A stretch of 64,000 nt of DNA. It comes from a virus. The translations under genes were made by a program, and so were the position numbers. The notes below the pieces were generated by a model that saw only the letters and a program-made list of their open reading frames with translations, was not told where the DNA came from and ran no database searches. The stretch is from the IMG/VR virus record IMGVR_UViG_3300045988_150584; one strand, 5' to 3'. Below, piece after piece: positions 4,073-61,123 of the stretch; position 1 is the first letter of the stretch, and every line of letters starts with the position of its first letter.

Positions 4073-4081
4073 CAGATTTTT

Positions 4082-10136: not shown

Positions 10137-11303
10137 CTATGATCTGTACATCTTTCTAATTCTAATGATATTCTTTCCGAGCAATTCGGCAGCGCGAGTT
10201 ACTTCTTCGACCGTCGTATTCCATCCAAACGAAACTCTAATTGTAGATTTTGCCTGCGTATAATTCCGACCAATAGCTCTCAAAACATGACTCGGCTCTA
10301 AACTGCCAGCAGAGCAAGCAGAAGCAGCAGAAATACATACACCGTCCGAATTCATCAGATGAAGAATAGCCTCAGATTCAACATCATTTATGGTGATACT
10401 CAAAATACTGCTTAGCTGATACGATTTCTCATAATGCTCATTGATTCTAATTCCCTCATCGCATACAGAGTACAGCTCTTTCAAAAATGCTTCCCGTAGC
10501 ACTAATGCGTCACGAGAAAATTCGTTTGGCGTTGAAAACTTTGCTGCAGTACCAAGCGCCACAATACCCGCTACATTCTCTGTGCCAGCTCTCACACCAA
10601 ATTCTTGCCCACCACCATATATAATCGGTTCAATATGCTTTTTAAGGCCACCGCGAACATACAAAGCTCCAACACCAATTGGCGCACCGAACTTATGCCC
10701 ACTAATAGACAGCATATCAACGCCGCAAGAATTCACATTGACATCAATATGACCAACTGCCTGCACTGCATCCGTATGAAATACCGCGCCATAATAATTA
10801 CAAAGATCTGCAATGCTTTTTACATCCTGAATAACACCAATCTCGTTATTCACCCACATGACAGACACAAGACCCACATTGTCTTCTTTGAGATATTTTT
10901 CAAGCTCAAATAAATCAACCTGTCCATATGTATCAACAGAAAGCGGCTTTACAACTATTCCAAGGCGCGTCAGTAAATTGCGTTGGTTCAAAATGGCATG
11001 ATGCTCAATTTTACTAACAAGCATTACATTATGGTTCGTTGCATTTAGAGCAGATGCCATTCCGATAAGCGCCAGATTATCCGACTCAGATCCGCCAGAA
11101 GTAAAAATAATCTCATCTGGGCTATCCGCGCCAATTAGCTTAGACACATCATAACGAGCTTGATAAATGGCTTGATGTGCTTGCCGGCCAGCAGAATGAA
11201 GAGAACTTGGATTTCCGCATTTCCCAACACCATACCAATAGTCCAGAGCTTCACGCACAGGCGGTCGAACGCTCGTTGTCGCTGCATGATCTAAATAAAT
11301 CAT
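10137..11303 (-). CDS. cysteine desulfurase (NifS/IscS-type, class V aminotransferase)
   Basis: MIYLDHAATT.., SGGSESDNLAL, SISGHKFGAPIGVGALYV (PLP-binding lysine), and C-terminal ..SAASACSAGS (catalytic Cys loop). The start follows AAGGAG. Confidence 0.85.
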   Translation of the reverse strand: MIYLDHAATTSVRPPVREALDYWYGVGKCGNPSSLHSAGRQAHQAIYQARYDVSKLIGADSPDEIIFTSGGSESDNLALIGMASALNATNHNVMLVSKIEHHAILNQRNLLTRLGIVVKPLSVDTYGQVDLFELEKYLKEDNVGLVSVMWVNNEIGVIQDVKSIADLCNYYGAVFHTDAVQAVGHIDVNVNSCGVDMLSISGHKFGAPIGVGALYVRGGLKKHIEPIIYGGGQEFGVRAGTENVAGIVALGTAAKFSTPNEFSRDALVLREAFLKELYSVCDEGIRINEHYEKSYQLSSILSITINDVESEAILHLMNSDGVCISAASACSAGSLEPSHVLRAIGRNYTQAKSTIRVSFGWNTTVEEVTRAAELLGKNIIRIRKMYRS

Positions 11304-11383
11304 CTTTTTCTCCTTTATGGGTGGACGGGCTTTGCCCGTCCGCGCCATGCTATCATAAAAATTACACACTAACATTTGAATTG

Positions 11384-32630: not shown

Positions 32631-32661
32631 GCAAATCAATATACCAGTTGGTAGTTATAGT
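32627..32661 (+). promoter_or_regulatory. class-A bipartite motif (copy 8)
   Basis: GTAAGCAAA-N14-GGTAGTTATAGT. The first block extends to GAAGTAAGCAAATCAATAT, which resembles class B. Confidence 0.7.
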
Positions 32662-32677
32662 GTATTGGAGGTGTAGC

Positions 32678-41237: not shown

Positions 41238-41328
41238 GGAGTAGTAATCCTAATTGGTAAGGAAGTAGTTTGCTAAACTACCAGTAATCGGGAACGATGT
41301 GCAGGTTCGAGTCCTGTCTACTCTGCCA
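41238..41328 (+). tRNA. tRNA-Ser(GCU)
   Basis: Acceptor GGAGTAG/CTACTCT, anticodon arm GTAGT-TTGCTAA-ACTAC, long variable arm, T-arm GCAGG-TTCGAGT-CCTGT. CCA is encoded. Confidence 0.85.
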
Positions 41329-41490
41329 ACAAAAGCAAGTAGACAAAGAGAAAGTCTGTTCGCAATCGAAGCCGGCAATCATTGATTATTTTGTCCGCTT
41401 TCTTCACGGTAACTGCATGGCAGTAGTGCGAATACAAAACAGATTGGGTTCTGTTGTATGGGAGTGTGGCCTATACCTTGCTTGATATAT

Positions 41491-41577
41491 GCTGATGTGA
41501 TGGAACTGGCATACATGGGGGACTTAAAATCCCCCGCCGATTGTGGATTATGGGTTCGACTCCCATCATCAGCACCA
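41491..41577 (+). tRNA. tRNA-Leu(UAA)
   Basis: Acceptor GCTGATG/CATCAGC, anticodon arm GGGGA-CTTAAAA-TCCCC, long variable arm, T-loop GGGTTCGACTCCC. CCA is encoded. Confidence 0.85.
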
Positions 41578-41659
41578 GCCGTTGTGATGATCGGCTTTCA
41601 TCTCCTTCTTTGTGTGACGGTGGGACAGACCACTACTGCCGTGTAAGTGCGGCATAAAT

Positions 41660-41771
41660 GAGAGCGTCTGGATGACAGCTTTAAGGTGTATCGAACGGCG
41701 GACACCTACAGCAATGTTCTTTAAGAAAACTGGAATTTTTCTGCTTACGGGTTCGATTCCCGTAGCTCTCA
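41660..41771 (+). ncRNA. tRNA-like RNA P3 (good acceptor and T-arm, no canonical D or anticodon arms)
   Basis: Acceptor GAGAGCG/AGCTCTC and T-arm ACGGG-TTCGATT-CCCGT. The interior contains hairpin AGGTGT..ACACCT followed by ACAGCAATGTT, plus two CTTTAAG heptamers. Confidence 0.45.
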
Positions 41772-41841
41772 AGAGCCGTTAAATAATCTTCTCGAACTGG
41801 TGAGCAATTCACAACTTCTCTGGGAAGATGTAATAAGAAAT

Positions 41842-41952
41842 GCAGAGGTAGCTCAGTCGGTAGAGCATCAGACAAAAAATGTGCTAAGCATTAGCGCTAA
41901 CAGCAATGTTAAAGGAATCCGAGTGTCGGAGGTTCAAGTCCTCCCCTCTGCG
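41842..41952 (+). ncRNA. tRNA gene P4 with a ~38-nt insertion in the anticodon loop (body Phe/Lys-like)
   Basis: - Perfect acceptor GCAGAGG/CCTCTGC.
- Canonical D-arm TAGCTCAGTCGGTAGAGC and T-arm GGAGG-TTCAAGT-CCTCC.
- Anticodon stem TCAGA/TCCGA encloses CAAAAAATGTGCTAAGCATTAGCGCTAACAGCAATGTTAAAGGAA. Confidence 0.6.
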
Positions 41953-41959
41953 TCTATAT

Positions 41960-42031
41960 TCGTGCGTAACATCTGCGAAAGTACACCGTGGATGCGATTG
42001 GTATATGTCAGTTCGATTCTGACCGCACGAG
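41960..42031 (+). ncRNA. tRNA-like RNA P7 (normal length, non-canonical core)
   Basis: Acceptor TCGTGCG/CGCACGA and T-arm GTCAG-TTCGATT-CTGAC. I could not fold the 40-nt interior into D and anticodon arms. Confidence 0.4.
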
Positions 42032-42110
42032 CCTATGCGGTGTCTCACTGAAATAAATGTGGTGTGGGTGAGTAAAATCAGGGCTGTTGAAGAACTTGTA
42101 TCGTAGCGCT

Positions 42111-42180
42111 GCGGTGCATGGAACGTCTGGCAGAAGCAGTTTTACAATACAGAGCTGTTCGAGTCAGCTCCACCGCCCCA
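42111..42180 (+). ncRNA. tRNA-like RNA P8 (short, non-canonical core)
   Basis: Acceptor GCGGTGC/CCACCGC (6 of 7 paired), T-arm AGCTG-TTCGAGT-CAGCT, CCA encoded. No 5-7-5 anticodon arm was found. Confidence 0.4.
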
Positions 42181-42183
42181 AAT

Positions 42184-42298
42184 GCCAGGGTAGCTCAATC
42201 GGTAGAGCGCGTAATAACGCGACTTGTTAAGCCGCTTGCAGCAAATTTCTTTTGGTCTGTTAAACCCGTGGTTGCAGGTTCGATTCCTGCCCCTGGCT
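42184..42298 (+). ncRNA. tRNA gene P5 (Asn-like CTGTTAA loop) with a ~44-nt insertion between the D-arm and the anticodon region
   Basis: Acceptor GCCAGGG/CCCTGGC, D-arm TAGCTCAATCGGTAGAGC, T-arm GCAGG-TTCGATT-CCTGC. The insertion carries GCAGCAAAT, and only a 3-bp GGT/ACC stem flanks CTGTTAA. Confidence 0.5.
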
Positions 42299-42384
42299 CA
42301 ACGTGAATGACTGCTTAAACCATTCTAAACCGACACGACAAAAGGGCAGAAATGGTGACAGCTCGGAGAGACGAGCATCTATAT

Positions 42385-42502
42385 ACGGCAGTGGTGAAGC
42401 GGTAACACAGCAGCCATACAAATGCGAAAAGTGGATTTTCGCTAACAGCTATTTCACAATCCAAGCTGCCAATCGTAGGTTCGATTCCTACCTGCCGTTC
42501 CA
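42385..42502 (+). ncRNA. tRNA gene P6 with a ~43-nt insertion in the anticodon loop
   Basis: Perfect acceptor ACGGCAG/CTGCCGT. Anticodon stem GCAGC/GCTGC encloses CATACAAATGCGAAAAGTGGATTTTCGCTAACAGCTATTTCACAATCCAA. T-arm GTAGG-TTCGATT-CCTAC. CCA is encoded. Confidence 0.6.
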
Positions 42503-42626: not shown

Positions 42627-42691
42627 GCCCCTCCTTTAAGACACAGACAGCATCGAATGTGAAATGGTGTCTTGAAGGCTATTTCAAACAA

Positions 42692-42712
42692 AAAGAAATT
42701 AGTTAAACAATT
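42692..42712 (+). promoter_or_regulatory. class-B motif copy directly 5' of an RBS
   Basis: AAAGAAATTAGTTAAACAATT followed by CAAGGAGG. Confidence 0.5.
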
Positions 42713-42728
42713 CAAGGAGGAAGAAAGT

Positions 42729-44273
42729 ATGAATGGTTTTATGTCTGCTATGAAAAGCACTTTGAACGATGAGTTCAATGTTTCTGTTACCGAAAACGGT
42801 GCTGTTGGCTATCGTACTACCGGCAAGGAACTATTGGATCTCAACTTTGCCGTTGCATCTCTTCGTAAGGCATCTCCGAGCGATATTGCAAACCGCTTCG
42901 TCAGAGCGTTTTTCGAGGATAAGATTACGGCAATGAAATGGCTGTTCTTTGCGCGTGATGTTCGTGGTGGTCTTGGCGAGCGTCGTTTGTTCCGCATCGT
43001 GTTTCAGCGTATGGCGGAGGAAAATCCGGAATACATCATTCCGCTGATTTCCCTTGTGCCTGAGTATGGACGCTATGACGATTTGTGGTGTTTGCTCGAT
43101 ACAAAGCTTGCACCTAATGTGCTGAACATCATTGCGCAGCAGCTCCGCGATGACATTCAGAATTTGAGCGATGGCAATAGTATTTCTCTTCTCGCAAAGT
43201 GGCTTCCGTCTGCGAATGCTCATTCCGCTGACGCAAAGCGTTATGCTAAGCAGATCTACAAGTTTATGGGCATTTCTGAGCGCGACTACCGTAAGGTGCT
43301 GTCCAAGCTGCGTTCTAAGCTGGATATCGTGGAGAAGAAAATGTCCGAAAAGCGTTGGGATGAGATTGCGTATGAAGCTGTCCCGTCTCGTGCAAATCTG
43401 ATTTACAACTCCGCATTCCTTCGTAACGACGAAGATCGCCGCCGCGATTTCCTGTCCCGTTTGGAAAAGGGCGAAACGAAAATCAATGCGTCTACGCTTT
43501 TCCCGCATGACATTGTTGCAAAGTATAGCGATGGCTGGCGTGGCCTGAAGCCTACGGATAAAACACTGGAAGCTCTTTGGAACGCACTTCCCGATACCGT
43601 AAACGGATGCGGCAATACCATCGTCGTTGCGGATGGCAGCGGCAGTATGACCGTGAATGTCGGTGGCAGCAATGTTACCGCACTGGCTGTTGCAAATGCA
43701 CTTGCGATTTATTTCGCAGAGCGTTCCTCTGGTCAGTTCAAGGACAATTACATTACATTTTCTGAGCATCCTCAGCTCGTCGATTTGAGTAAGGGCAAGA
43801 ATCTCCGCGAGAAGATTCAGATTGCGCTTAAACACAGCGAGGTAGCAAACACAAATATCGAAGCGGTGTTTGACCTTATCTTGACTACGGCAAAGAAAAA
43901 CAACATGGGACAGAGCGATCTTCCTGCAAATATCCTTATTATCTCCGATATGGAGTTTGACTACTGCGCAACATCGAATGGTGGAAGCAGATATAATCGT
44001 GGTCGCGTTGATTCTCGTCTGTTTGACAAGATTGCAAAGCGCTATGAGGATGCTGGGTATAAACTGCCAAGGCTCGTGTTCTGGAACGTGAATAGCCGCA
44101 CGAATACCATCCCTATTAAGGAAAACGAGATGGGAGTTGCGCTTGTAAGCGGTTTTAGTCCGAACATCGCAAAGATGGTGATGAGTGGTCAAACTGATCC
44201 GTATGAGTGTCTGCTTGAAACGCTGAACTCTGATCGCTATAAGCCTATCGGTGACGCTCTGGAAAATCAGTAA
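42729..44273 (+). CDS. DUF2828-family protein with a vWA/MIDAS-like domain
   Basis: N-terminus VTENGAVGYRTTGKELLDLNF.., GRYDDLW, and VVADGSGSM (DxSxS MIDAS-like). 514 aa. Family recalled from memory of plant and phage DUF2828 proteins. Confidence 0.65.
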   Translation: MNGFMSAMKSTLNDEFNVSVTENGAVGYRTTGKELLDLNFAVASLRKASPSDIANRFVRAFFEDKITAMKWLFFARDVRGGLGERRLFRIVFQRMAEENPEYIIPLISLVPEYGRYDDLWCLLDTKLAPNVLNIIAQQLRDDIQNLSDGNSISLLAKWLPSANAHSADAKRYAKQIYKFMGISERDYRKVLSKLRSKLDIVEKKMSEKRWDEIAYEAVPSRANLIYNSAFLRNDEDRRRDFLSRLEKGETKINASTLFPHDIVAKYSDGWRGLKPTDKTLEALWNALPDTVNGCGNTIVVADGSGSMTVNVGGSNVTALAVANALAIYFAERSSGQFKDNYITFSEHPQLVDLSKGKNLREKIQIALKHSEVANTNIEAVFDLILTTAKKNNMGQSDLPANILIISDMEFDYCATSNGGSRYNRGRVDSRLFDKIAKRYEDAGYKLPRLVFWNVNSRTNTIPIKENEMGVALVSGFSPNIAKMVMSGQTDPYECLLETLNSDRYKPIGDALENQ

Positions 44274-44656: not shown

Positions 44657-44967
44657 TGCCAGATGTTGTTATGACGAATCATAGTGTGAAGCGAACAAAA
44701 GAAAGAATTGGACTAAGCAAGAAAATCGCAGATAAGAACGCGCAGAGAGCGCTTGAATACGGTGTTACGCACTCTGAGGCAAAAGGTGGCTTATGTCGGT
44801 ATCTTGATAAACTGTATCTGTCGAATGGTAATGCAAATAATGTTCGCGTTTATCACAGATATGTATATCTCTTTCGTGGGAACACGCTTTTGACAATCAT
44901 TCCATTACCAAACAAATTCTATGCTCTGGCGGACAAACTTCAAAAGCAGAAAGGCGAAATAGAATGA
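44656..44967 (+). CDS. hypothetical protein
   Basis: 103 aa, with a start/stop overlap. Confidence 0.5.
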   Translation: MPDVVMTNHSVKRTKERIGLSKKIADKNAQRALEYGVTHSEAKGGLCRYLDKLYLSNGNANNVRVYHRYVYLFRGNTLLTIIPLPNKFYALADKLQKQKGEIE

Positions 44968-45920
44968 GAATTGTAAAAACACATACTGGAAAAATTTATG
45001 TTGATAAGGATAAGAAACTGGAATTTTTAACGGTTGGCGACTATGGCAAGGAAAACAATATTAAAGCAAGTTTTCTTGGTTTGAACAAAGAAATCAACGG
45101 TGTTCAACATCATACGGTTGACCTGGCGGATAAGTGGGTTGCTACTATCAGCACTCAGAAAGGTTGTCCGATGAATTGCCAGTTTTGTGATTGCCCGAAG
45201 TATGGATTTCACGGAAATGTATCTCGTGAGGAACTGGCTTATGAAATTGAGACAATTCTTGCAAACGAACGAGTAACACATACTAATCGTTTCAATGTTC
45301 ACTTTGCTCGCATGGGTGAGCCTACATTCAACGATGCCGTTCTTCCGTTTGCTGAATTTGATTTGAAGCCGCTGGTTAAGCGGTTTATTACGGCAGATAC
45401 AATTCATCCTGTTGTTTCAACTATGCTTCCGAAAGCAAATGCCAATTTGAAGTCATTCATCATGGAATGGTGTCGCATTAAGAACAGTGTGTACAGTGGA
45501 GAAGCTGGTCTGCAATTTAGCATCAATTCGACGAATCAGGCGCAGCGTAATGAACAGTTTAACGGAAAGAGCTTATCCTTATCAGAAATTTCAAGTCTCG
45601 CATCTAAGCTTCCTACGCCGGTCGGTAGAAAATACACATTGAATTTTGCGGTAACGGCTGACACGATTTTGGATGCGGTGGAGCTTGGGAAGCTGTTCGA
45701 TAAGGAAAAGTTTATCGTAAAAATTACGCCGATTCACCAGACAAATGCAGCCATTAAGAATGGATTTGATGTGACCACGGAATATACTGACTACGATGTT
45801 TACCGCAAGTTTGAAGATCCACTTGTTGCTGCTGGATGGGATGTCATTGTGTTCGTACCGAGCGAGGAAGAAGATAGCGACCGTATTACTTGCGGGAATG
45901 CCTTAATTTCAGATAAGTGA
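44964..45920 (+). CDS. RlmN/Cfr-like radical SAM RNA methyltransferase
   Basis: STQKGCPMNCQFCDCP (CxxxCxxC), FARMGEPTFN (MGMGEP-like), and C-terminal DRITCGNAL (second catalytic Cys, CGQL-like). Confidence 0.65.
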   Translation: MRIVKTHTGKIYVDKDKKLEFLTVGDYGKENNIKASFLGLNKEINGVQHHTVDLADKWVATISTQKGCPMNCQFCDCPKYGFHGNVSREELAYEIETILANERVTHTNRFNVHFARMGEPTFNDAVLPFAEFDLKPLVKRFITADTIHPVVSTMLPKANANLKSFIMEWCRIKNSVYSGEAGLQFSINSTNQAQRNEQFNGKSLSLSEISSLASKLPTPVGRKYTLNFAVTADTILDAVELGKLFDKEKFIVKITPIHQTNAAIKNGFDVTTEYTDYDVYRKFEDPLVAAGWDVIVFVPSEEEDSDRITCGNALISDK

Positions 45921-47494: not shown

Positions 47495-48574
47495 GTGATT
47501 AAGAAGGTTGATCGGAAAAATCGGTTTGTAGCAATGTTTAATCCTACAACTGGCTTCTATGCTCGTAGTGGTGTGATTGATGAGAATGGGCATGACACCG
47601 GCGTAGATCCGTTTATGACAGCATTCCCAGAGCTGATTGATGTCGGTGTGATGGGTCATTGTGTCCACGGAGCAAGCGGTCTTTGCTTTAAGTCTGGCGT
47701 TCAGTGTTATCAGAACGGACTAAAGACAAAAGAACCAAATATGACGCTTGAAAATTTCAAACGCATTGTTGATGAATGTAGGGGTAAAACATTCCAGCTC
47801 GCGCTTGGTGGTCGTGGTGATGTTGACCAGCACGAAAATTTTGCTGAGATTTTGCAGTATTGCAGGGAAAACAATATCGTGCCGAATTTCACTTCTTCAG
47901 GGCTTGGCTTTACAGATGAGATTGTAGATCTGTGTAAAAGATACTGTGGTGCAGTAGCAATCTCCTGGTATCGCCAGAAGCATACATACCGTGCGATTCA
48001 GATGCTTTTGGATGCTGGCGTAAAAACGAACATTCATTATGTTCTTGGAAACAATTCCATTGAAGAAGCAATTATGCGGCTAAAAAATAATGGTTTTCCT
48101 GCTGGCATTAACGCAGTGATTTTCCTTCTTCACAAACCCGTTGGACTCGGCAGCGAAGAGAATGTTTTGCAGATGGATAACCCGCTCGTAAGACAGTTCT
48201 TTGAGATTGTGGATATGCAGAAATTCAATTTCAAAATTGGCTTCGATTCATGTTCTATTCCAGCCGTTTTGAATCTGACTCACAATATCGACCACGATAG
48301 TATTGATACTTGCGAGGGCGGCAGATGGAGCATGTATATCACAAGCGACATGAAAGCTTTGCCCTGTAGTTTCGATAATCAAGAGCTGCGTTGGGCATTT
48401 GATATTAGCAATTCCAGTATCGAAGAAGCTTGGAATAGTCCGCAGTTTGAAAGATTTAGAAGTCATTTCAGAAATTCTTGCCCGAATTGTCAGTGCCAAC
48501 ACGCTTGTATGGGCGGTTGTCCGATTCGTCCGCAAGTAGTTTTGTGCGATAGGGCGGAAAAGGAGCTGTATTAA
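47495..48574 (+). CDS. radical SAM/SPASM-like protein with an atypical N-terminal Cys pattern
   Basis: C-terminal CPNCQCQHACMGGCP is SPASM-like. The N-terminal GHCVHGASGLCFKSGVQCY is not the canonical CxxxCxxC. GTG start after AAGGAGGG. Confidence 0.5.
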   Translation: MIKKVDRKNRFVAMFNPTTGFYARSGVIDENGHDTGVDPFMTAFPELIDVGVMGHCVHGASGLCFKSGVQCYQNGLKTKEPNMTLENFKRIVDECRGKTFQLALGGRGDVDQHENFAEILQYCRENNIVPNFTSSGLGFTDEIVDLCKRYCGAVAISWYRQKHTYRAIQMLLDAGVKTNIHYVLGNNSIEEAIMRLKNNGFPAGINAVIFLLHKPVGLGSEENVLQMDNPLVRQFFEIVDMQKFNFKIGFDSCSIPAVLNLTHNIDHDSIDTCEGGRWSMYITSDMKALPCSFDNQELRWAFDISNSSIEEAWNSPQFERFRSHFRNSCPNCQCQHACMGGCPIRPQVVLCDRAEKELY

Positions 48575-52490: not shown

Positions 52491-53930
52491 ATGTACGCAG
52501 CATATGTAACTCGTATTAAGAATTTGCGCAAACATTCAAACGCGGATCGACTTCTCTGCGGTGAATGTTTTGGCAATACGGTAATTGTGGGCTTGGATAC
52601 AAAGCCAGAAGAGCTGGGTGTCTATTTCCCCGTAGATGGCAAGCTTGGCACTGAGTATGCGGTGAAGAACGACCTGCTTCGCCGTAAGGATGAGAACGGT
52701 AAGCCTGCTGGTGGTTATCTCGATCCTGAAAAGCGTAATATTAAGGCGTTGAAGCTTCGTGGCGAAAAGAGCGATGGCTTGTTTATGCCATTGTCCAGTT
52801 TGAGTGGGTTCACAGATATTGCAAAGCTCCGTGATGGCGATGTAATTACCATTTTGAATGGTGTTACAATTTGTGAGAAGTATATCCCCCATCGTAAGAA
52901 GAGTACCATTATGGTTGGGGGGGGTAGGACTCGTAAGCATCACGATCCTGTTGCTCCGCTCTTTGCGGAACATGCTGACACGGAACAGCTCGCATATAAC
53001 CTCAGCGCATTTCACCCAGGCGATCTTGTTGAGATTACTTTGAAAATGCACGGCACATCTCAGCGAACCGGATATCTACCAATGCTTAAAGGATATAAGA
53101 AGACATTGCTTGATAAGCTCCTACATCGCATTGGTTCTCCGATTTATAATTGGGGATATGTAACTGGTACTCGTCGTGTTGTCTTGGATGATTTTGACGG
53201 TGGCTTTTATGGTAGCAATGCTTTCCGTGAACAGCATAGCAAGGTTTTTGAAGGTAAGCTGCATAAGGGCGAAACCGTGTACTATGAAGTCGTTGGCTTT
53301 ACGCAAGACAAGCAGCCTATTATGGCATCTTGCGACAATAAAAAAGTCGGTGATAAGGAATTTGTTAAACAATACGGCGAAAAGACAGTGTTTAGCTATG
53401 GTTGCTATCCAGACGGTGTAAAGGAAGTAACAAATCCGAAAATTACACACGCAACAGTAATGATTGGCGATACCTCTTTTACAGCAAATGAGATTACGGA
53501 ATATGAATCTGCTCCGCAGTCTGATTTCTATGTGTATCGAATGACAATGACAAATGAGGATGGCGATGTTGTTGAATACACACCAGACTTTATGCGTTAT
53601 CGTTGTGAACAGATGGGCGTTAAGTGTGTTCCGCTATTTGCTCGATTCATTATTCCGGATTACATTCAGCTTCCTGATGCTGTTGGGTCTCCGATGGCTG
53701 TCAATGCTGGCGAATATGTCAAGGAAATTGCTGAAAACTTCTATGATGGTGCAGACCCGATTGGTAAGTCGCATGTCCGCGAGGGCGTTGTTTGCCGTAT
53801 CGTAAACCGCCCAAAGTTTACAGCATATAAGCACAAGAATTTTGCATTCAAGGTGCTTGAGGGAATTGTAAAGGATGTTGCGTCTGCTCCGGACATGGAA
53901 GAAGCGCAAGATGATGTAAGCGTTGCATAA
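52491..53930 (+). CDS. ATP-dependent RNA ligase (Rnl2/Rnl5-like, N-terminal OB module)
   Basis: N-terminus YVTRIKNLRKHSNADRLLCGECFGNTVIVG (DRB0094-type OB). Nucleotidyl-lysine motif EITLKMHGTS (KxHGT). An in-frame G8 tract at 52917-52924 encodes GGG. Confidence 0.8.
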   Translation: MYAAYVTRIKNLRKHSNADRLLCGECFGNTVIVGLDTKPEELGVYFPVDGKLGTEYAVKNDLLRRKDENGKPAGGYLDPEKRNIKALKLRGEKSDGLFMPLSSLSGFTDIAKLRDGDVITILNGVTICEKYIPHRKKSTIMVGGGRTRKHHDPVAPLFAEHADTEQLAYNLSAFHPGDLVEITLKMHGTSQRTGYLPMLKGYKKTLLDKLLHRIGSPIYNWGYVTGTRRVVLDDFDGGFYGSNAFREQHSKVFEGKLHKGETVYYEVVGFTQDKQPIMASCDNKKVGDKEFVKQYGEKTVFSYGCYPDGVKEVTNPKITHATVMIGDTSFTANEITEYESAPQSDFYVYRMTMTNEDGDVVEYTPDFMRYRCEQMGVKCVPLFARFIIPDYIQLPDAVGSPMAVNAGEYVKEIAENFYDGADPIGKSHVREGVVCRIVNRPKFTAYKHKNFAFKVLEGIVKDVASAPDMEEAQDDVSVA

Positions 53931-54050
53931 CGACATTACGCATCTTATCCATCAATGTCGAACGGTGTGCTGGAATATATACGGATTTGGTAGCTCCAGC
54001 ACACTGCCGACATATTGTCAGAGATTGTATTTTGAAAGAGAGGTGCTGTG

Positions 54051-54872
54051 ATGAGTGACAGAGAAAAGATTATGAAGCGGCTTTCTGAACACCTCGAAGC
54101 AGTAAGAGACAAACACCCTGAGTGGGTTGGTATTTTTCTTCAAGGTTCACAAAACTACAACTTAGATTATGAGGGCAGCGATATTGATTCCAAGCTGATC
54201 GTCCTCCCTTCGTTTGAAGATTTTGTTTTGAACAAGAGACCGTATAGCTACACACACATCATGGAAAACGATGAACATGTAGATGTTAAGGATATTCGTC
54301 TGATGCTCGATTGCTTCAAAAAGCAGAATGTAAATTTTGTTGAGATTCTTTTTACCCCGTACCGTATCTTGAATCCAAAGTACGAAGCTTTGTTTCAGCC
54401 GATTCTTGATATTGCAGAGAGAGTCGGTCGATATAACAACTATGCTGCATTGAACTGCATGGTCGGAATGGCGCTTGAAAAGCAAAAGGCATTGTGCCAC
54501 CCATATCCTGCAACAAAAGACAAGATTGATAAGTACGGTTTCGACAGCAAACAGTATCATCATATCGAGCGTCTTTATGAGTTCATGCAGCGTTGGCTTA
54601 ATGGCGAGCCATATCGTGATTGCCTCATTTCTAAGCAGAGAGAACGTCTTAGAGAAATCAAGCTTTATATTAACTGCGATCTTACAACGGCGCAGGCCAA
54701 TTCGGACAGAATTGTATCTGAGATGAAGTCAATCAAGGACACTTATATGCAGCAGAATCCTGTCGTGATAGATCGTGAGGTTGATTCAGTTTTCAATAAG
54801 GTTTTGCTTGATTTATTTAAGTTTAATTTCCAGTGTGAGATTGGTAACGGCTCGCCTAATAAAAAGGAGTAA
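54051..54872 (+). CDS. Pol-beta-superfamily nucleotidyltransferase
   Basis: GIFLQGSQNYNLDYEGSDIDSKLIV (GS..x..DxD). Confidence 0.6.
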   Translation: MSDREKIMKRLSEHLEAVRDKHPEWVGIFLQGSQNYNLDYEGSDIDSKLIVLPSFEDFVLNKRPYSYTHIMENDEHVDVKDIRLMLDCFKKQNVNFVEILFTPYRILNPKYEALFQPILDIAERVGRYNNYAALNCMVGMALEKQKALCHPYPATKDKIDKYGFDSKQYHHIERLYEFMQRWLNGEPYRDCLISKQRERLREIKLYINCDLTTAQANSDRIVSEMKSIKDTYMQQNPVVIDREVDSVFNKVLLDLFKFNFQCEIGNGSPNKKE

Positions 54873-54876
54873 GAAT

Positions 54877-55791
54877 ATGTCTATCTTTTTTATGATGGTA
54901 GGTCTTCCGTACAGCGGAAAATCTGTTTATGCGGAGGGGCTGCGAGAGAAGTTCGGTGCAGAGATTCATTCCAGCGATGCAATTCGAGCAGAGATCCTTG
55001 GAGATGTACAGGATCAGACAAACAATCAGATTGTTTTTGATACTCTGCACAAGCGAGTAATTTCTGATTTGTCTGCTGGTAAAAATGTAATTTACGATGC
55101 GACGAATATCAATTACAAGCGGCGTATTGATATGCTGAATCGCTTGTCGAAGGTGAAGTGTCAGAAAGTCTGTATCGTTATGGCGACACCTTTTCACGAA
55201 TGTGAAGAGCGTAGCAAGCATCGTGAGCGGGTTGTCCCACACGAGGTTCTTGTGCGTATGTATAAGAATTTCTGGCTTCCGTATTGGTATGAGGGGTGGG
55301 ACGCAATCGAGCTTGTTTATCCAGATAATTTTGAGCCGTACAGTGTAAGTGATTTATTTAATCGTGATGGAGGGCTGAATAGCTTTGAGCAGGACAATCC
55401 ACATCATACTTTCACGGTTGGGCATCATTGTATCGCTACATATGGGCTTGTTTCTGATGGAAGCACAGAGCTTCAGGAGGCTGCTCTTCTTCATGATATC
55501 GGAAAGCCTTTCACAAAAAGCTTTGTGAATAGCAAGGGCGAAACAACAGAGATTGCTCATTATTATGAACATCAGCATGTTTCCGCCTATGATAGCTTAT
55601 TCTACTCAAATCCGAGTTTGAATCGGCTGTATATCGCAAATATCATCCAGTGGCATATGCGTCCGTTTGAGCTTGAACGAGACCCCCATTCTGGCAAAGC
55701 GCAGAAGCGGTTCAAAAAGCTTGTCGGCAATAAGCTTTATTCAGATGTGATGAAGCTTCATGCCGCTGATATCGAAGCAAAAGGAACTTGA
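54877..55791 (+). CDS. polynucleotide kinase (P-loop) fused to an HD phosphohydrolase
   Basis: MMVGLPYSGKS (Walker A), YDATNINYKRR, and C-terminal HH..LLHDIGKP (HD). Confidence 0.75.
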   Translation: MSIFFMMVGLPYSGKSVYAEGLREKFGAEIHSSDAIRAEILGDVQDQTNNQIVFDTLHKRVISDLSAGKNVIYDATNINYKRRIDMLNRLSKVKCQKVCIVMATPFHECEERSKHRERVVPHEVLVRMYKNFWLPYWYEGWDAIELVYPDNFEPYSVSDLFNRDGGLNSFEQDNPHHTFTVGHHCIATYGLVSDGSTELQEAALLHDIGKPFTKSFVNSKGETTEIAHYYEHQHVSAYDSLFYSNPSLNRLYIANIIQWHMRPFELERDPHSGKAQKRFKKLVGNKLYSDVMKLHAADIEAKGT

Positions 55792-56752
55792 TAAACAATA
55801 CAAAGTGGGTGTTTGGCATTTACAGTAAAGAAGACTTAGATGTAATGCAGTCATGGGATTTGCAGCGAAAAATTCAAGTGACTACAACTCGTATCATTGA
55901 GTGGTATGAGCATTTCGGCGGAAGCGTTTATGTTGCTTTTTCTGGTGGTAAAGATAGTACGGTTTTGCTTGATATCGTTCGCCGTATTTACCCAGATGTG
56001 CCGGCTGTATTTTGTGACACTGGCTTGGAATTTCCGGAAATCCGAGAGTTTGTTAAGCAGCATGATAATGTTGTGATTCTGCGACCTGAGATGAATTTCA
56101 GAAAGGTCATCGAAACATACGGATATCCAGTTGTCTCAAAAAGAGTTGCCGACACTGTAGAATATGGCAGTAAGCCAGGTTCTTATCGGTGGAAAGAGCT
56201 TCACGGAGAGATTATCCGTAGCAATGGTACTCCGTCGGAGTTTAACTGCGAAAAGTGGCGCTATCTTCTGGACGCCCCATTTAAGGTTTCTTCTCGTTGC
56301 TGCAATATTATGAAGAAGAAGCCGCTGAAGAAGTATTTCAAAGAAACTGGTCGCGTTCCCATTATTGCAACTATGGCAGACGAGAGCCGATCTCGTCGAT
56401 CTACATGGATGAGACAGGGTTGTAATGCTTTTAGTAAGAAATCTCCAAGTTCTCAGCCGATGTCTTTCTGGACAGAAAATGATGTTCTTGAGTATTTGCA
56501 CACCTACAATATTCCCTACGCCTCCGTTTACGGTGAGATCATACCTTGTGGGGGGGGTGGACAACGACAGGTGAAAGAAGAACTGGTTGTGTCTTTTGCG
56601 CATTTGGCGCTCATCTGGAGAAGTCCCCGAACCGTTTCCAGCGATTAAAGGAAACGCATCCTAAGCTATGGGAATATTGTATGAAGCCTTGGAGTGAACA
56701 TGGCTTAGGTATGCGAACAGTATTAGAGTACATTGGTATTCCGTGTGAATAG
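55788..56752 (+). pseudogene. PP-loop 'PAPS reductase'-family gene #1, reading frame broken at a G8 tract
   Basis: VAFSGGKDSTVLLD (PP-loop). After G8 at 56550-56557 the conserved C-terminus (..TGERRTGCVFCAFG..) continues in another frame. G9 or G6 would restore it. Confidence 0.75.
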
Positions 56753-56768
56753 AAAGTGAGTTTTTGTA

Positions 56769-58078
56769 ATGCAACCAATTTTCAAAGAATACGCTCATTT
56801 CTTACATGATAATGGGTGTGATATATCTTGGTTTCAAGAAAGAACATATTGGTTGGATCACAACATTGTAAAAGCGTTCACGAGGGGGGGGGCAGCGGTT
56901 AGTTTCGCTATATAAGATTGTTGTTTCTGACGATCTTACCGTTGCTCTTACAAAACACAAACAAAATGTTGATGGTCTGCAATTTGAATCTTGGGACGAA
57001 ACTATCGCGCGTTTCAGACCGCATCTTGAAAGTATTGAGCATGATAGCATCGCTCTTCTTCGACAGTATGGAATTGGGACAGAGCGGAAAATAGTCAATA
57101 CAAATTCTACTGGCAAAGACAGTATGGTTGTTACACATCTTGCAAAAAAAGCAGGATTAAATTTTGAAACATATTTCAATGTTACAACCTTGGATGTTGC
57201 TGAAAGTAATTGTATGGCAAAACGGAATGGATTCAAACACATTCTGCCCAATCCGGAGTATGGTGGATTTTATAAGTACATCCAACGCTATGATGGGGGG
57301 GGGCAACCAAATGATACCAAGTAGATTGAATCGCTTCTGCTGCAATTATTTTAAGGAAAGTCCGACAATTGGCTATTTTCCTGATGATGAGCCTCTGATT
57401 TTCTTATTTGGAATGCGGAATCAAGAATCAGTTCGCCGGTCTGGTTATAAGGACATATGGAAAAACGAAAAGTGGGGCGAACGCGACTGGATCGCTCTTC
57501 TTCCAATTCGTCAATGGTCTGAGTTTGATGTCTGGCTTTATATTTTGTCGGAAGATATTGAGATCAACGACAAGTATAGATACGGATATGATCGCGTTGG
57601 ATGTGGTATTGCTTGTCCGAATTATACAAAGTATACATGGGTTCTTGATAAATACTGGTATCCATATTTGTTTAATCGGTGGAGAAATATCTTACGGAAC
57701 GACTTTATCAACAATAACAAGTGGCTCATTATGAATTGCACCGTCGATGAGTATGTGACAAAAGCATGGACTGGCGGTGTATATCGTGACGAGCCGACAG
57801 AAGATGTTATTTCTGAATTTTCTCAGTATTCTGGGCTGGATATATCAATTGCAAGAAAGTATTTTAATCGCTATTGCGCAAATGGATGTATTAACAAGCG
57901 CCGTCAGCCTCTTCGGATCAAAGATAGAAATGCTCTTGCCATGAATATGAAAATGTTTGGAAGAAATATAAATCATTTTTTGTGCAAGAAATGCCTTATG
58001 AAAGAATTTGGTTGGAACAAATCTCAATGGGACGAAAAAGTCAGCGAATTCAAAGCGCAAGGCTGTCAATTATTTTGA
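56769..58078 (+). pseudogene. PP-loop 'PAPS reductase'-family gene #2, frame broken at two G9 tracts
   Basis: NSTGKDSMVV (PP-loop variant), ..RLNRFCCNYFKESP.., ..GCGIACPNY.. G9 tracts lie at 56884-56892 and 57295-57303. G8 at each would give one continuous ORF. Confidence 0.7.
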
Positions 58079-58117: not shown

Positions 58118-58639
58118 ATGAAGATGGACAAAGTTGCTGGCAGTGGGAATGACGAATTCTACACGCCAGAGTATGCAATTACACCTATTGCAAAGTATCT
58201 TGCACCCCCCCCCGCCGTAATTTGGTGTCCGTTTGATACGGAAGACAGTTTGTTTGTGAAGCATTTTAGAGCTGCTGGGTATACAGTTTTGGCAACACAT
58301 ATTTGTAATGGTCAGGACTTTTTTACTATGGAGACTCCAAACTGTGACTACATCATTAGTAATCCTCCATATTCACTTAAAGGTGATGTTATTGACCGCC
58401 TGTTTGAAATCGGAAAACCGTTTGCAATGCTTGTTGGCGTTGTTGGATTGTTTGAAAGCCAACATCGGTTTAACCTTTTCAAGTCACATGAATTTGAAAT
58501 TATGTATTTGAATAAGCGCGTTTCATACTTTAAGGACTATGCAGAGCAAAAACCGTCGCTTAATCCTCCGTTTAGTAGCGTCTATATTTGTAGCAAAATG
58601 CTTCCAAGAACCATTGTATTTGAAGAAATCGACAAATAA
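58118..58639 (+). CDS. N6-adenine DNA methyltransferase (small Dam-like, NPPY)
   Basis: DEFYTPEYA.., IISNPPYSLKG. An in-frame C9 tract at 58205-58213 encodes PPP. Confidence 0.75.
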   Translation: MKMDKVAGSGNDEFYTPEYAITPIAKYLAPPPAVIWCPFDTEDSLFVKHFRAAGYTVLATHICNGQDFFTMETPNCDYIISNPPYSLKGDVIDRLFEIGKPFAMLVGVVGLFESQHRFNLFKSHEFEIMYLNKRVSYFKDYAEQKPSLNPPFSSVYICSKMLPRTIVFEEIDK

Positions 58640-58651: not shown

Positions 58652-59533
58652 ATGAGATATACTACTTCCCTTTTCTGCGAGTTCGATAAGTACGCAGCAG
58701 AAAGCTATTGTGCGGTTCATGACACAGCTCCGGAGCTAAATATTGGTGATATTACAAAGGCAGATGAGAAGTCTGTACCTGATTTCAACACCATGTTTGG
58801 CGGATCTCCGTGTCAGGACTTCTCTATCGCAGGGAAACAGGGGGGGGCTGCATGGACATGTAAAAACTGCGGTCATACATATAACCCCCTTGAAGCCCAT
58901 TACACAGAGCGAGATAAATGCCCGAATTGCGGTTCGACTAAGATTGAGAAAACACGCTCGTCTCTTTTGGTTGAATGGCTGCGCTTCCTTCGGGAGAAAA
59001 AGCCTCGTTTTGCTATCTATGAAAATGTCAAGAACATTGTAGGCGCTCGTTTTAGACCGACATTCGATCTGTTTGTTAAAGAGCTTGAGGACTACGGTTA
59101 CAATGTTCACTGGCAAGTATTAAATGCGAAAAATTATGGTATTCCTCAGAATCGAGAGCGTGTCTATTGTGTTATCATTCGTAAAGATTTGGATAACGGA
59201 AAGTTCAAATTCCCAGAGCCTATTCCGCTTAAACATACGCTTGCCGATATGTTAGAAACCGATGTCGATGAAAAATACTATCTCAGTGACGAGAAAGTAG
59301 CTGCAATGATTACCCCCCCCCGCAGCGAATCAGTAAAACAATCCGAGTTGGAGGAAGAAATTCAGCCGACAGACAACATCAATGGGACTTGGTTGCAGAA
59401 AACACATGGAGTCCGATTGAGTAACAAAGGCAACAAGTTTGATGGATATAGTGATATTGCTCTAACTCTTCTTGCGAGAGACTATAAGGGTTTTGGCAAT
59501 CAGCAAATGACAGGAGTAATGGAAATTGACTGA
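58652..59533 (+). CDS. C5-cytosine DNA methyltransferase, N-terminal catalytic part plus first TRD
   Basis: GGSPCQDFSIAGK (motif IV), YENVKNIV (VI), QNRERVY (VIII), TLLARDYKG. A Zn-ribbon insertion is present. In-frame G8 (58840-58847) and C9 (59313-59321) tracts. Confidence 0.8.
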   Translation: MRYTTSLFCEFDKYAAESYCAVHDTAPELNIGDITKADEKSVPDFNTMFGGSPCQDFSIAGKQGGAAWTCKNCGHTYNPLEAHYTERDKCPNCGSTKIEKTRSSLLVEWLRFLREKKPRFAIYENVKNIVGARFRPTFDLFVKELEDYGYNVHWQVLNAKNYGIPQNRERVYCVIIRKDLDNGKFKFPEPIPLKHTLADMLETDVDEKYYLSDEKVAAMITPPRSESVKQSELEEEIQPTDNINGTWLQKTHGVRLSNKGNKFDGYSDIALTLLARDYKGFGNQQMTGVMEID

Positions 59534-59648
59534 TAAAATTATTCAAGTTGGGAACTGGACGCAAGGTGCAAAACGCGAGAATCCGCAAAGAGGTCGAGTA
59601 TACGATCCGTCAGGAATTGCACCATCCCTCACCTGTATGGGGGGGTAA
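59526..59648 (+). pseudogene. TRD fragment of the C5-methyltransferase locus ending at a G7 tract
   Basis: ..QRGRVYDPSGIAPSLTCMGGG*. G7 lies at 59639-59645, and one G fewer continues as GGNLQPFIIV.. Confidence 0.5.
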
Positions 59649-59698
59649 TCTTCAGCCGTTTATAATCGTCCGTAATGAACATGTTGAGTTAGAAAGTA

Positions 59699-60775
59699 GT
59701 GCTGATGAAGAGTAGCGTTTTAATTCCCGCAGCAATTCACGGTCGTTATTCTGACAATGGTAGTATTGTGCAGCGATTAGAGCTTAGGCCAGATAAATGC
59801 ACGAATACGCTTACCTCTGTACAGAAGGACAATATTATAGTGGAATGCTGCATTGATATCCGTTTCTCCACTGAACGGAGTGAAGATGTGAAAGAAAACA
59901 ATATGCCAGTCAATGTTGGAAATGTAAATCCGTCTGGGCATGGAATGAACGGTACGGTCTACGACGCAGATGGCGTTTCTCCGACATTAACGACGAATAA
60001 AGGAGAGGGCGTAAAAATCCGCATTAAATCACCTACGCCCTTACACCAGACAATTATCTATGATGACTACAATAGGAGGATCAAGTCGGATCAGACTTGT
60101 ATAGGAACAGTTATGCCAAATTTCAAAAATGACGCTCCTGGCAATGGAACTAAGCTGATTGAAGTAAGTCCTACACCAGAGGATAAAATCACAATGCTTG
60201 GCGGCTTGCAAAAGCACCAGACTCCGAGAGACGATGGTATCTGCCCATGCGTAAATAGCGCTGCCGGTATGGGTGGTGGGCAAACGCCTATTGCAATGCG
60301 CCCAGGTTTTCGGGTAAGAAAACTCACGCCGAAAGAGTGTTGGCGTTTGATGGGTTTTGACGATGAGGATTTTGAAAAAGCACGCGATGCTATGAACGAG
60401 AATATTTATAATGGTAACGACCGTTCCAGTTCGCAGCTCTATAAGCAGGCCGGTAATAGTATTGTCGTAGATGTCCTTCAGCATATTATGGAGAATCTAT
60501 ATGACGCTATGCCATATCTGTTTGACGATATGTCTGTTGGATCGTTCTTCAGCGGTATTGGCGCTTTTGAAAAAGCTCTATCGCGGCTTGATACAAGGCT
60601 GAGCGAGAATACTCAGAATGGTTCTTCCGCCGAACTTACACAGATTGGATATATCAACGATTATAATGGAGACGCAAATCGTGTATATGATGGCGCTGCC
60701 ATTGCCCGTGCCTTGAAAGCCGAGGCGGGGGGGGCGGAGCAAAGACCGGATGGTACAGTGTCAATGCTTCGTTAA
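59699..60775 (+). CDS. C5-methyltransferase continuation: further TRDs plus motifs IX/X
   Basis: RLELRPDKCTNTLTSVQKDN, NGTVYDADGVSPTLTT, RKLTPKECWRLMGF, QLYKQAGNSIVV (motif X), then FFSGIGAFEKAL (motif I-like). The frame ends 41 nt after G8 at 60727-60734. Confidence 0.65.
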   Translation: MLMKSSVLIPAAIHGRYSDNGSIVQRLELRPDKCTNTLTSVQKDNIIVECCIDIRFSTERSEDVKENNMPVNVGNVNPSGHGMNGTVYDADGVSPTLTTNKGEGVKIRIKSPTPLHQTIIYDDYNRRIKSDQTCIGTVMPNFKNDAPGNGTKLIEVSPTPEDKITMLGGLQKHQTPRDDGICPCVNSAAGMGGGQTPIAMRPGFRVRKLTPKECWRLMGFDDEDFEKARDAMNENIYNGNDRSSSQLYKQAGNSIVVDVLQHIMENLYDAMPYLFDDMSVGSFFSGIGAFEKALSRLDTRLSENTQNGSSAELTQIGYINDYNGDANRVYDGAAIARALKAEAGGAEQRPDGTVSMLR

Positions 60776-60776
60776 A

Positions 60777-60920
60777 GTGATTGGAAGAATAATTCCAGAT
60801 AGCAAGAAGCTTCACCAAAATCAGGAAGTGTATGATACGGATTCGTGTAGCGGCGGAGGGCTTTCGCCTACGATTAAAGCCACGCACTACAAAGATCCAC
60901 CCAAAATTGAGGTGCAGTAG
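60777..60920 (+). pseudogene. TRD-like fragment
   Basis: ..QEVYDTDSCSGGGLSPTIKATHYKDPPKI.., in a different frame from the preceding ORF. Confidence 0.45.
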
Positions 60921-61123
60921 TGGAAACAGTCAGAATTAAGCAAGCCACAAAACAGGGTTTTATTGAGTGCGTCGTGGGGGGGGCTGTCGATCTCTCCTAT
61001 CCAAACTCAAAAACAAGGCGTGGTCGAGTACAAGAGGGCGGAACGATCTGCCCGACAATTACAGCACAGAATACCGGCATCTGCCTTATTGAAAAAGCAG
61101 ATTATTCCCGCAAATCCACTTGA
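60920..61123 (+). CDS. TRD-like ORF (GTG start)
   Basis: KQATKQGFIE..SKTRRGRVQEGGTICPTITAQ. An in-frame G8 tract lies at 60976-60983. Confidence 0.45.
   Translation: METVRIKQATKQGFIECVVGGAVDLSYPNSKTRRGRVQEGGTICPTITAQNTGICLIEKADYSRKST

Follow-up and report, generated by a model that had tools for sequence, protein, structure and literature searches.

Phages are known to switch genes reversibly at homopolymers. In phage T2, the DNA-glucosylation gene agt toggles by homopolymer slippage between sensitivity to TgvAB and sensitivity to McrBC (PMC12633550). In Campylobacter phages, switching at polyG tracts is reported mainly in receptor-binding genes, according to the citation of Sorensen et al. 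2021 Cell Rep in PMC12823448. Phosphorothioate (PT) systems all pair, as far as they are known, a PAPS-reductase-domain protein with an NTPase of the DndD/SspC/BrxC kind (PMC12914056; PMC10853773; PMC12839542); BrxP, BrxC and a desulfurase write the phosphorothioate, with brxP and brxC as the minimal set (PMC12914056). Here, we describe a locus in IMG/VR virus record IMGVR_UViG_3300045988_150584, a temperate phage of the Firmicutes, in which two PAPS-reductase-family genes, designated P1 and P2, are interrupted exactly at runs of G, and the lengths of these runs differ among close relatives. The window refers throughout to the whole 64,000-nucleotide stretch of this record that was analyzed. 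An earlier note, made from the sequence alone, had taken both genes as intact and proposed a sulfur-based modification of nucleic acid; it overlooked the frame breaks at the G runs, which are the main feature of the locus. In the literature searched, neither polyG/C switching in gut phages of Firmicutes nor phase variation of PAPS reductases in phages was described.

RESULTS

The reading frames of P1 and P2 break at G tracts

Positions 55788 to 58078 hold two genes with matches to PAPS_reduct (PF01507), neither of which is one continuous open reading frame (ORF) in the window. The frame of P1 is broken once, at a G8 run (56550-56557), after which homology resumes in the -1 frame and continues to a stop at 56752. 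P2 begins at ATG 56769, shifts frame at both of its G9 runs and ends at 58078. All three breaks coincide exactly with the G runs. Addition of one G to the P1 run and removal of one G from each P2 run yielded repaired products of 321 amino acids for P1 (55788-56752) and 435 amino acids for P2 (56769-58078). The repaired proteins matched PF01507 with E values of 5e-22 (P1, 79.1 bits) and 3e-18 (P2, 66.9 bits) against a gathering score of 22.5, and phrog_424 with E values of 6e-53 and 2e-24, respectively, in alignments that run across the repair sites. P1 is in frame at G9 and out of frame at G8 or G10; its out-of-frame product ends before the CxxC motif and is without two presumed cluster ligands. 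The true start of P1 is probably GTG 55809 or ATG 55845, downstream of TTG 55788, since the reading begun at that TTG meets a stop at codon 7 in five relatives.

The two genes had been described as PP-loop paralogs. Both PAPS_reduct genes are present, but they have only the domain in common (blastp, 24% identity over 87 amino acids; hhalign probability, 56%) and, on these alignments, are distant relatives and not the outcome of a recent duplication. The SGGKDS-type PP-loop ascribed to both is found in P1 (residues 52 to 57), whereas the loop of P2 reads STGKDS (residues 113 to 118). The cysteine motifs RTGCVFCAFG and CGIAC are real, although the SGGKDS and RTGCVFCAFG motifs of P1 sit in different frames in the window.

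Long G/C tracts are enriched in the window

The window contains 12 G/C runs of at least 7 bases (range, 7 to 9), compared with 1.0 expected under a first-order Markov model; the maximum reached in 200 simulations was 5 such runs. Shorter G/C runs are depleted, with 80 observed versus 125 expected at length 4, 10 versus 23 at length 5 and 0 versus 4.5 at length 6. In the long ORFs of the phage, GGG and CCC are the rarest glycine and proline codons (9% each). Ten of the 12 tracts fall within 52.9 to 61.0 kb, in the genes for an RNA ligase, P1, P2 and DNA methyltransferases. These tracts are a selected feature and not noise or chance.

Tract lengths differ among close relatives

A search with repaired P1 recovered related sequences at 79 IMG/VR loci and 30 genome loci. 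The genome relatives are prophages of gut Oscillospiraceae and include those of the cultured isolates Clostridiales bacterium CCNA10 (a complete genome), Dysosmobacter segnis, Hominicoprocola fusiformis and Oscillospiraceae 50-58. Tracts are found at identical gene positions in relatives, amounting to dozens of loci from IMG/VR, metagenomes and isolate genomes, down to about 67% protein identity and at 42 to 50% GC; more distant homologues are without the runs. An exact-flank DNA search of IMG/VR for the P1 tract with the flanks of the window gave no match because the flanks of the relatives differ by one base. A degenerate flank pattern, used instead, gave matches, and in 11 further metagenome contigs the P1 tract was G9 in 3 and G8 in 8. 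Comparison of the region with GenBank phages by blastn returned only three short, weak matches.

In eight genomes that are 93 to 97% identical to the window, every G/C run except that of the RNA ligase varies in length. These are pure length changes with conserved flanks, and in the same alignment A/T runs of 6 show little variation, part of it by substitution. Sixteen distinct combinations of tract lengths were found in 16 close genomes. Within the close clade, the P1 tract was G8 in 16 cases and G9 in 10; the first P2 tract was G9 in 12, G8 in 8 and G6 in 2; and the second was G9 in 11, G8 in 7 and G7 in 5, compared with G8 in 20 and G7 in 2 for the RNA-ligase tract. Over 116 loci, 405 runs of at least 7 bases were counted, including 161 in parts of the C5 methylase, 74 in P1, 34 in the small methylase, 30 in the RNA ligase (29 of them G8), 20 in the gene for a polynucleotide-kinase-like/HD phosphohydrolase protein (PNK/HD; 17 of them C8) and 15 in P2. 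The near-invariant G8 of the RNA ligase, being of equal length, serves as an internal control against sequencing error.

Two further observations concern the extremes of this variation. In one IMG/VR contig (L040, position 6736) the P1 tract has grown to G20. Conversely, the tracts of the RNA-repair genes, G8 in the RNA ligase and C8 in the PNK/HD homologues of loci L007 to L037, are nearly fixed, so that slippery runs are kept in genes that seem always to be needed.

Purifying selection acts on P1 and P2 both before and after the frame breaks

Of the 49 loci that bear the tract, 16 have P1 in one frame and 33 have it split. Its ratio of nonsynonymous to synonymous substitution rates (dN/dS) is 0.04 upstream of the tract and 0.07 for the 64 codons downstream, and these values are unchanged among out-of-frame genomes alone, with many pairs at saturated synonymous distance. 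The low dN/dS past the tract indicates continued selection on the protein encoded there, and since the tract has been kept where synonymous sites have been randomized, the run itself is maintained. When both tracts were set to G8, P2 was an intact ORF of 435 codons in 13 of 14 genomes, with a nonsynonymous to synonymous polymorphism ratio (pN/pS) of 0.077; with the tracts as found, 3 of the 14 (L116, L125 and L127) have the whole of P2 in frame. The protein database holds full-length forms of both proteins (P0001, 321 amino acids, 275 members; P0121, 435 amino acids, 431 members) as well as truncated forms (P0014, P0015 and P0157; lengths of 286, 262, 317 and 255 amino acids).

In AlphaFold 2 models of the repaired proteins (pLDDT, 86 and 87.5), all three tract sites lie in loops or hairpin turns. 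Tract-less homologues have at the P1 position a variable loop ("..EDDKG") with a single glycine encoded by GGC, GGT or GGA, and the DGGGN insertion that holds the second P2 tract is not present in most homologues. These alignments and models place the tracts in surface loops and mark them as derived.

P1 and P2 are predicted to be Fe-S-type PP-loop enzymes

The PP-loop is invariant in the family alignments, and so are the CC dyad and the CxxC (P1, CVFC) or CxxxC (P2, CGIAC) motif; the P2 family has six more invariant cysteines in its helical C-terminal domain. In alignment with APS reductase, CC...CxxC falls on the ligands of its [4Fe-4S] cluster. The top Foldseek matches were CysH, APS reductase and CysD, with a TM score on the target of about 0.6 (adenine-nucleotide alpha-hydrolase fold), and weaker fold matches were obtained to TtuA and LarE (for P1, E values of 1e-3 for TtuA and 4e-8 for CysH). 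Searches of the PDB by sequence, profile and Foldseek likewise returned only CysH, CysD and FAD-synthase and, more weakly, TtuA/LarE. The fold leaves the substrate unsettled because the comparison set was without structures of DndC, SspD or BrxP. A Pfam search with relaxed cut-offs gave no match to the terminal domains of P2, N- or C-terminal.

The best scores with the CysH and APS-reductase models were 53.8 bits against a cut-off of 154 and 49.7 against 165. An ECGLH-type C-terminal catalytic motif is absent from P1 and P2, and the penultimate cysteine of P1 is not conserved but replaced in relatives (IGIPVE). TtcA of NCBIfam scored 18 bits against a cut-off of 272, and ATP_bind_3 of Pfam 16 bits against 27. 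In the PADLOC profile library, which is without curated cut-offs, BrxP matched P2 with an E value of 2e-26 over about 320 residues (profile positions 43 to 359 of 779) and P1 with 1e-18, and SspD matched P1 with 5e-11; for all 21 members of the P1 family, BrxP and SspD gave the best scores among nucleic-acid modifiers. The earlier assignment of both proteins to the Fe-S-type PP-loop enzymes of the PAPS-reductase family is borne out by these data, but the likeness to DndC that accompanied it is negligible (E value, 0.003). Among the defense-system profiles, BrxP was the best match, followed by SspD, and DndC was marginal. Motifs and profiles place P1 and P2 with the Fe-S-type PP-loop enzymes of the PAPS-reductase family, but in no curated family.

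P1 and P2 lie between RNA-repair and methyltransferase genes

The surroundings of the two genes agree with their earlier description, with RNA-repair genes upstream and N6-type and C5 methyltransferase genes downstream (Table 1). The cysteine desulfurase that had been placed at 10137-11303 is also confirmed as a gene of that class, and its start is 11303 if translation begins at Met25. It lies 45 kb from P1/P2 on the opposite strand and is a possible donor of sulfur or Fe-S clusters. In 33 related loci, a desulfurase homologue (40 to 43% identity) is found 4 to 5 kb upstream of P1 on the same strand, in the gene order DUF2828, desulfurase, RNA ligase, nucleotidyltransferase (NTase)-like ORF, PNK/HD, small ORF and P1.

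Table 1. Coordinates of P1, P2 and associated features in the window
Feature	Position	Strand	Remarks
NifS/IscS-type cysteine desulfurase	10137..11375	-	Aminotran_5, 3e-78; PADLOC SspA/DndA, ~1e-118
RNA ligase with in-frame G8 tract (52917-52924)	52491..53930	+	Tract hardly ever varies
NTase-like ORF	54048..54872	+	Weak RlaP and NTP_transf_2 matches only
Polynucleotide-kinase-like P-loop + HD phosphohydrolase (RNA end healing)	54877..55791	+	
P1, 5' part (PP-loop SGGKDS, DTG motif, CC dyad)	55788..56549	+	Probable start, GTG 55809 or ATG 55845
P1 G8 tract	56550..56557	+	Beta-hairpin loop, ~10 codons 5' of CxxC motif
P1, 3' part, -1 frame (RTGCVFCAFG; invariant Cys in YCMKPW)	56558..56752	+	
P2, segment 1 (N-terminal beta-rich domain)	56769..56883	+	
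P2 G9 tract 1	56884..56892	+	In-frame length, G8
P2, segment 2 (PP-loop NSTGKDS)	56893..57294	+	
P2 G9 tract 2	57295..57303	+	In-frame length, G8; inside clade-specific DGGGN loop insertion
P2, segment 3 (CC dyad, CGIAC, Cys-rich helical C-terminal domain)	57304..58078	+	
Small N6-type methyltransferase (NPPY) with C9 tract (58205-58213)	58118..58639	+	
C5-methyltransferase N half with G8 (58840-58847) and C9 (59313-59321) tracts	58652..59533	+	Both tracts variable
G7 tract	59639..59645	+	Between modules like target recognition domains (TRD-like), in different frames
C5-methyltransferase C half (TRD-like modules, motifs IX and X) with G8 tract (60727-60734)	59699..60775	+	Tract variable
G8 tract in TRD-like ORF 60920-61123	60976..60983	+	

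Several other features were noted around this region. Two radical-SAM/SPASM-type ORFs (44964-45920 and 47495-48574, plus strand) may be further Fe-S clients of the phage desulfurase. A 1,027-amino-acid fusion of an N6-methylase with an SNF2 helicase is encoded at 32648-35731 on the plus strand. Outside the island, a G8 tract (39186-39193) lies near the end of a 92-amino-acid ORF (38971-39249; weak DUF6980 match), and a C7 tract (18013-18019) lies in a 292-amino-acid ORF on the minus strand (17759-18637).

In a sister clade (L117, 10999-15437), P1 is followed by isochorismatase, phosphoribosyltransferase, NAMPT/NAPRTase and NAD synthase genes of the NAD-salvage type, and at another locus (L112, 1-1079) it stands near Macro and NAD synthase genes. 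The possibility that P1 supplies the missing adenylyltransferase of the sister-clade cluster was set aside, since the invariant Fe-S cysteines are unexpected for that chemistry; the cluster is, moreover, absent from the window. From its gene content, the P1 island looks like a general counter-defense island.

The C5-methylase region may encode a split enzyme

The N half of the C5 methyltransferase carries motifs II to VIII and a Zn-ribbon insert, and the C half carries the TRD, motifs IX and X and a motif-I-like FFSGIGAFE. No single ORF joins the two halves in the tract-bearing loci among the 116 examined; such ORFs occur only in the tract-less, distant L100 and L101. The idea that one long C5 methylase results when all tracts are on was rejected in favor of a putative split enzyme, there being no joined ORF in tract-bearing loci. 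Across 58652-61123, several TRD-like modules of the form VYDxxGxxPTLT..GG occupy different reading frames in the intervals that separate the tracts at 59313, 59639, 60727 and 60976. By its module layout, this region could encode a split, multispecific methylase whose specificity modules are chosen by tract length.

The phage belongs among the SPbeta-like phages

An 898-amino-acid ORF at 6437-9133 on the minus strand (Pfam RdRP, 6.6e-15) encodes a YonO-type single-chain RNA polymerase (RNAP), which places the element among the SPbeta-like phages; relatives carry YonB, YonD and YonG domains and a DnaE-type polymerase. The window has 17 tRNAs and a tmRNA. One end of the element (79-4157, minus strand) holds 15 tRNA genes, the tmRNA (1685-2100) and a full-length ROOL RNA (3288-3895; 400 bits). 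On the plus strand, at 41238-42499 and 42672-44273, tRNA-Ser, tRNA-Leu and three tRNA-like Rfam matches of unusual length (111 to 115 nucleotides) lie directly upstream of a DUF2828/DUF7788 ORF. On sequence features, this tRNA-like/DUF2828 block could be a Ro60/Y-RNA-like (YrlA-type) module. The same DUF2828/DUF7788 ORF heads the desulfurase/RNA-repair/P1 block in sister clades.

DISCUSSION

A proposed model of tract-switched counter-defense genes

We favor a reading, at a probability of roughly 0.6 and drawn from sequence comparison, in which P1 and P2 are distantly related Fe-S PP-loop enzymes in an accessory counter-defense island, carried by an SPbeta-like temperate phage of gut Oscillospiraceae, and act as contingency loci switched by their tracts. 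Strand slippage during DNA replication would lengthen or shorten a tract by one base and so shift the reading frame. P1 would be on at G9, and at G8, as in the window, translation would stop before the ligands of the CxxC motif. P2 would be on only with G8 at both tracts, and the window, with G9 at both, would have it off. With the N6 and C5 methyltransferase genes bearing similar tracts, each phage lineage would carry its own combination of modifications switched on and off. Such switching would spread the risk over two kinds of host, those that restrict DNA without the modification and those in which the modification itself is restricted or sensed.

Within this model, DNA is our tentative choice of substrate, at somewhat less than even odds: P1 and P2 may adenylate and then thiolate, or otherwise modify, the phage DNA as a counter-defense mark, with the phage NifS-like desulfurase supplying sulfur or Fe-S clusters. 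In favor of DNA are the ranking of BrxP and then SspD among the profiles and the position of the methylases directly downstream. In small, cultured Firmicutes phages, P1-family genes also lie inside the packaging and head modules, between TerS and TerL in Clostridium phage Clo-PEP-1 and between the portal and head protease genes in Ruminococcus phage NatCom_29429. Further, swapping in a two-gene Vibrio-phage region with a PAPS-domain/Dam fusion counters Dnd (10.1101/2021.05.05.442762). The more specific proposal, a sulfur mark (phosphorothioate or thiolated base) written without a DndD/SspC/BrxC partner, with the phage's own desulfurase, and toggled together with the methyltransferases, is doubtful. 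If it held, one burst would contain many epigenetic "phasotypes," some mimicking PT-defended hosts and some evading PT- or methyl-dependent nucleases. A modification of tRNA is distinctly less likely than one of DNA, and the balance of our expectation goes to some other chemistry of P1 and P2.

As a separate matter of annotation, the P1-family gene of Clo-PEP-1 (L137; KY206887.1, 13960-14940) is labeled "aminotransferase V" in GenBank. By tblastn, it belongs to the PAPS-reductase family, with 38% identity over 96% of P1, and the label looks like a mis-annotation.

Several observations weigh against the favored reading. No curated NCBIfam cut-off is reached by P1 or P2; the PADLOC DndC profile matches P1 with an E value of only 0.003 to 0.006 (best family member, 9e-6) and P2 not at all, and NCBIfam DndC matches neither. 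The set of genes that the earlier note regarded as what phosphorothioation would need is incomplete, as a DndD/SspC/BrxC-type NTPase was not found among the window ORFs scanned; neither this NTPase nor DndE or SspB/DUF4007 was found beside P1/P2 or among the ten largest window ORFs that lack an assignment. Differences between assemblies are the basis for proposing switching within a population and for judging its rate. The small N6 methyltransferase has an intact ORF (C9) only in the window; in 21 of 23 related loci the tract is C8 and in one C7, both of which split the gene, and a gene that is off in 21 of 23 loci is hard to fit with simple balanced switching. One relative (L004, on the same contig as L136) has a P1 nonsense mutation, R203*, despite an in-frame tract and an extra indel in P2, so that true decay of both genes does happen. 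Finally, P1 is syntenic with the RNA-repair cassette and, in sister clades, the desulfurase as well; the phage carries 17 tRNAs; and the RNA-repair genes have tracts too, so that a tract by itself is not diagnostic of a DNA modifier. For this last reason, tract variability was rejected as a decisive means of telling DNA from RNA substrates, even though the tracts of the RNA-repair genes are nearly fixed.

Alternative explanations

The alternative that survives best, although unlikely, is that P1, and perhaps P2, works with the desulfurase to thiolate tRNA, such as that encoded by the phage, or to restore a thiolated wobble base as part of the adjacent tRNA-repair cassette. The gene order conserved in 33 loci, the tRNA complement of the window and the presence of tRNA thiolases among the PP-loop Fe-S enzymes are all in keeping with it, as is a P1 homologue of 59% identity, in a phage of 32% GC, that again has an Aminotran_5 gene close by, together with a Pnkp-Rnl1 fusion that is not orthologous. 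However, matches to the TtcA, TtuA and Ncs6 families are much poorer than those to CysH, BrxP and SspD, and in other phages the P1-family genes reside in DNA-packaging modules with no RNA-repair genes nearby. The synteny itself may stem from the common descent of an accessory island in which NAD-salvage and methylase genes are found as well.

It is less likely still that the tracts are recoding sites at which slippage of RNA polymerase or ribosomes sets the dose of expression, a mechanism that can coexist with switching at the DNA level. Long homopolymers are known slippage sites, the phage has its own single-chain (YonO-type) RNAP, and most alleles of P1, P2 and the small methyltransferase have tract lengths that put them out of frame. 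Unlike a fixed recoding signal, however, the DNA tract varies freely in length among close relatives (7 to 10 bases, once 20), and both +1 and -1 corrections would be required.

We give very little credence to the possibility that the genes are intact everywhere and that both the breaks and the length differences between genomes arose from mistakes at homopolymers in sequencing or assembly. Several platforms are prone to such errors and most of the loci come from metagenome assemblies, but errors would not leave the RNA-ligase tract at G8 in 29 of 30 loci and that of PNK/HD at C8 in 17 of 20, and opposite repairs are needed, +1 in P1 but -1 at each of the two P2 tracts. The genomes of cultured isolates, one of them complete, carry the tracts as well, again with differing lengths. 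Error would, in addition, leave unexplained the conserved 8- and 9-mers made of the rarest codons and the depletion of 5- and 6-mers.

Equally improbable is that P1 and P2 are decaying pseudogenes in which the G runs are mere break points. In the window alone, both genes look like the inactive pseudogenes that the earlier note had named as its counter-case, 33 of 49 loci have P1 out of frame, 11 of 14 genomes have P2 out of frame, and L004 has its extra lesions; the comparative data, however, describe genes that are switchable and not dead. Upstream and downstream of the breaks alike, dN/dS is 0.04 to 0.08, even where out-of-frame genomes are compared with each other and at saturated synonymous distance; outside the tracts, 13 of 14 P2 copies and the other P1 copies are free of lesions; alleles in frame are frequent (P0001 and P0121); and an uninterrupted tract persists against neutral drift.

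That P1 and P2 are auxiliary metabolic genes (AMGs) for assimilatory APS/PAPS reductases (CysH) is barely tenable, since the closest structures and sequence matches, the CC...CxxC motif equal to that of the APS-reductase Fe-S cluster and the "PAPS reductase" wording of PHROG and source annotations are countered by CysH scores near 50 bits against cut-offs of 154 to 165, the lack of an ECGLH-type motif, the occurrence of two divergent, phase-variable copies among methylases and the location of family members inside packaging modules.

Implications

If the proposed switching is real, prophages of Oscillospiraceae possess a built-in generator of epigenetic diversity with at least six tract-bearing genes and a large number of potential combinations, which would help to explain how temperate gut phages face restriction, BREX/Dnd/Ssp and modification-dependent defenses. 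"Frameshifted" or "truncated" genes in such phages should then not be discarded as pseudogenes or assembly errors. The widespread phage "PAPS reductase" genes are usually labeled as sulfur-metabolism AMGs; the phase variability, linkage to methylases and sites in packaging modules argue for counter-defense. The isolates identified here would permit locked-on and locked-off constructs for testing the role of the enzymes, in which the P1/P2 tracts are recoded from GGGGGGGG(G) to GGAGGTGG(C), in or out of frame.

Comparison with known systems

P1 and P2 share with CysH (PDB 2goy, 1sur and 6vpu) the fold, the PP-loop and DTG motifs and the CC...CxxC cluster motif. Unlike CysH, they fall below all curated cut-offs, have no ECGLH tail and, in P2, carry extra domains. 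DndC is likewise an Fe-S PP-loop ATP pyrophosphatase with a cysteine dyad and a NifS-like desulfurase, but its profile match is negligible and the DndD/DndE pair is missing, and P1 and P2 are not members of that family. BrxP of BREX type 4 and SspD (PMC12914056, PMC12839542) resemble them in the PAPS_reduct PP-loop domain, the conserved cysteines and a desulfurase in the genome; with BrxP, the alignment of P2 includes the region N-terminal to the PP-loop domain. In contrast to BrxP and SspD, P1 and P2 are without DUF4007/SspB and have no BrxC/SspC, BrxZ or BrxL nearby. They cover under half of the 779-position BrxP profile, and P2 has a different C-terminal domain, which is helical and Cys-rich. 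The Vibrio PAPS-domain/Dam fusion (Piel et al., 10.1101/2021.05.05.442762) is similar in that a phage-borne PAPS domain is physically linked to a DNA methyltransferase, and its counter-defense role has experimental support. The Vibrio protein is a single fusion for which no tracts are reported, whereas the genes here are separate.

With respect to switching, T2 agt and T4 rIIA (Gomez, Barrick & Waters, PMC12633550) undergo reversible homopolymer frameshifts, and the switched gene of T2 encodes a DNA-modification enzyme subject to a restriction trade-off. The T2 runs are A-runs, from a survey that counted every run of at least 6, whereas those described here are G/C 8- and 9-mers in a temperate Firmicutes phage of 43% GC. 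Compared with phage contingency loci, the tracts here consist of the rarest codons, are conserved past synonymous saturation and stand out against a depletion of shorter runs; ten of them lie in 8 kb and in at least six genes, PAPS-reductase-like enzymes among them. Relative to T2 and the Campylobacter phages, the evidence for switching comes here from comparative data. Phasevarions and phase-variable restriction-modification systems (PMC4889913) likewise have simple-sequence repeats in DNA-modification genes and on/off epigenetic states; the present locus differs from them in being phage-borne and in setting several independent modification genes side by side, PAPS-reductase-like genes included.

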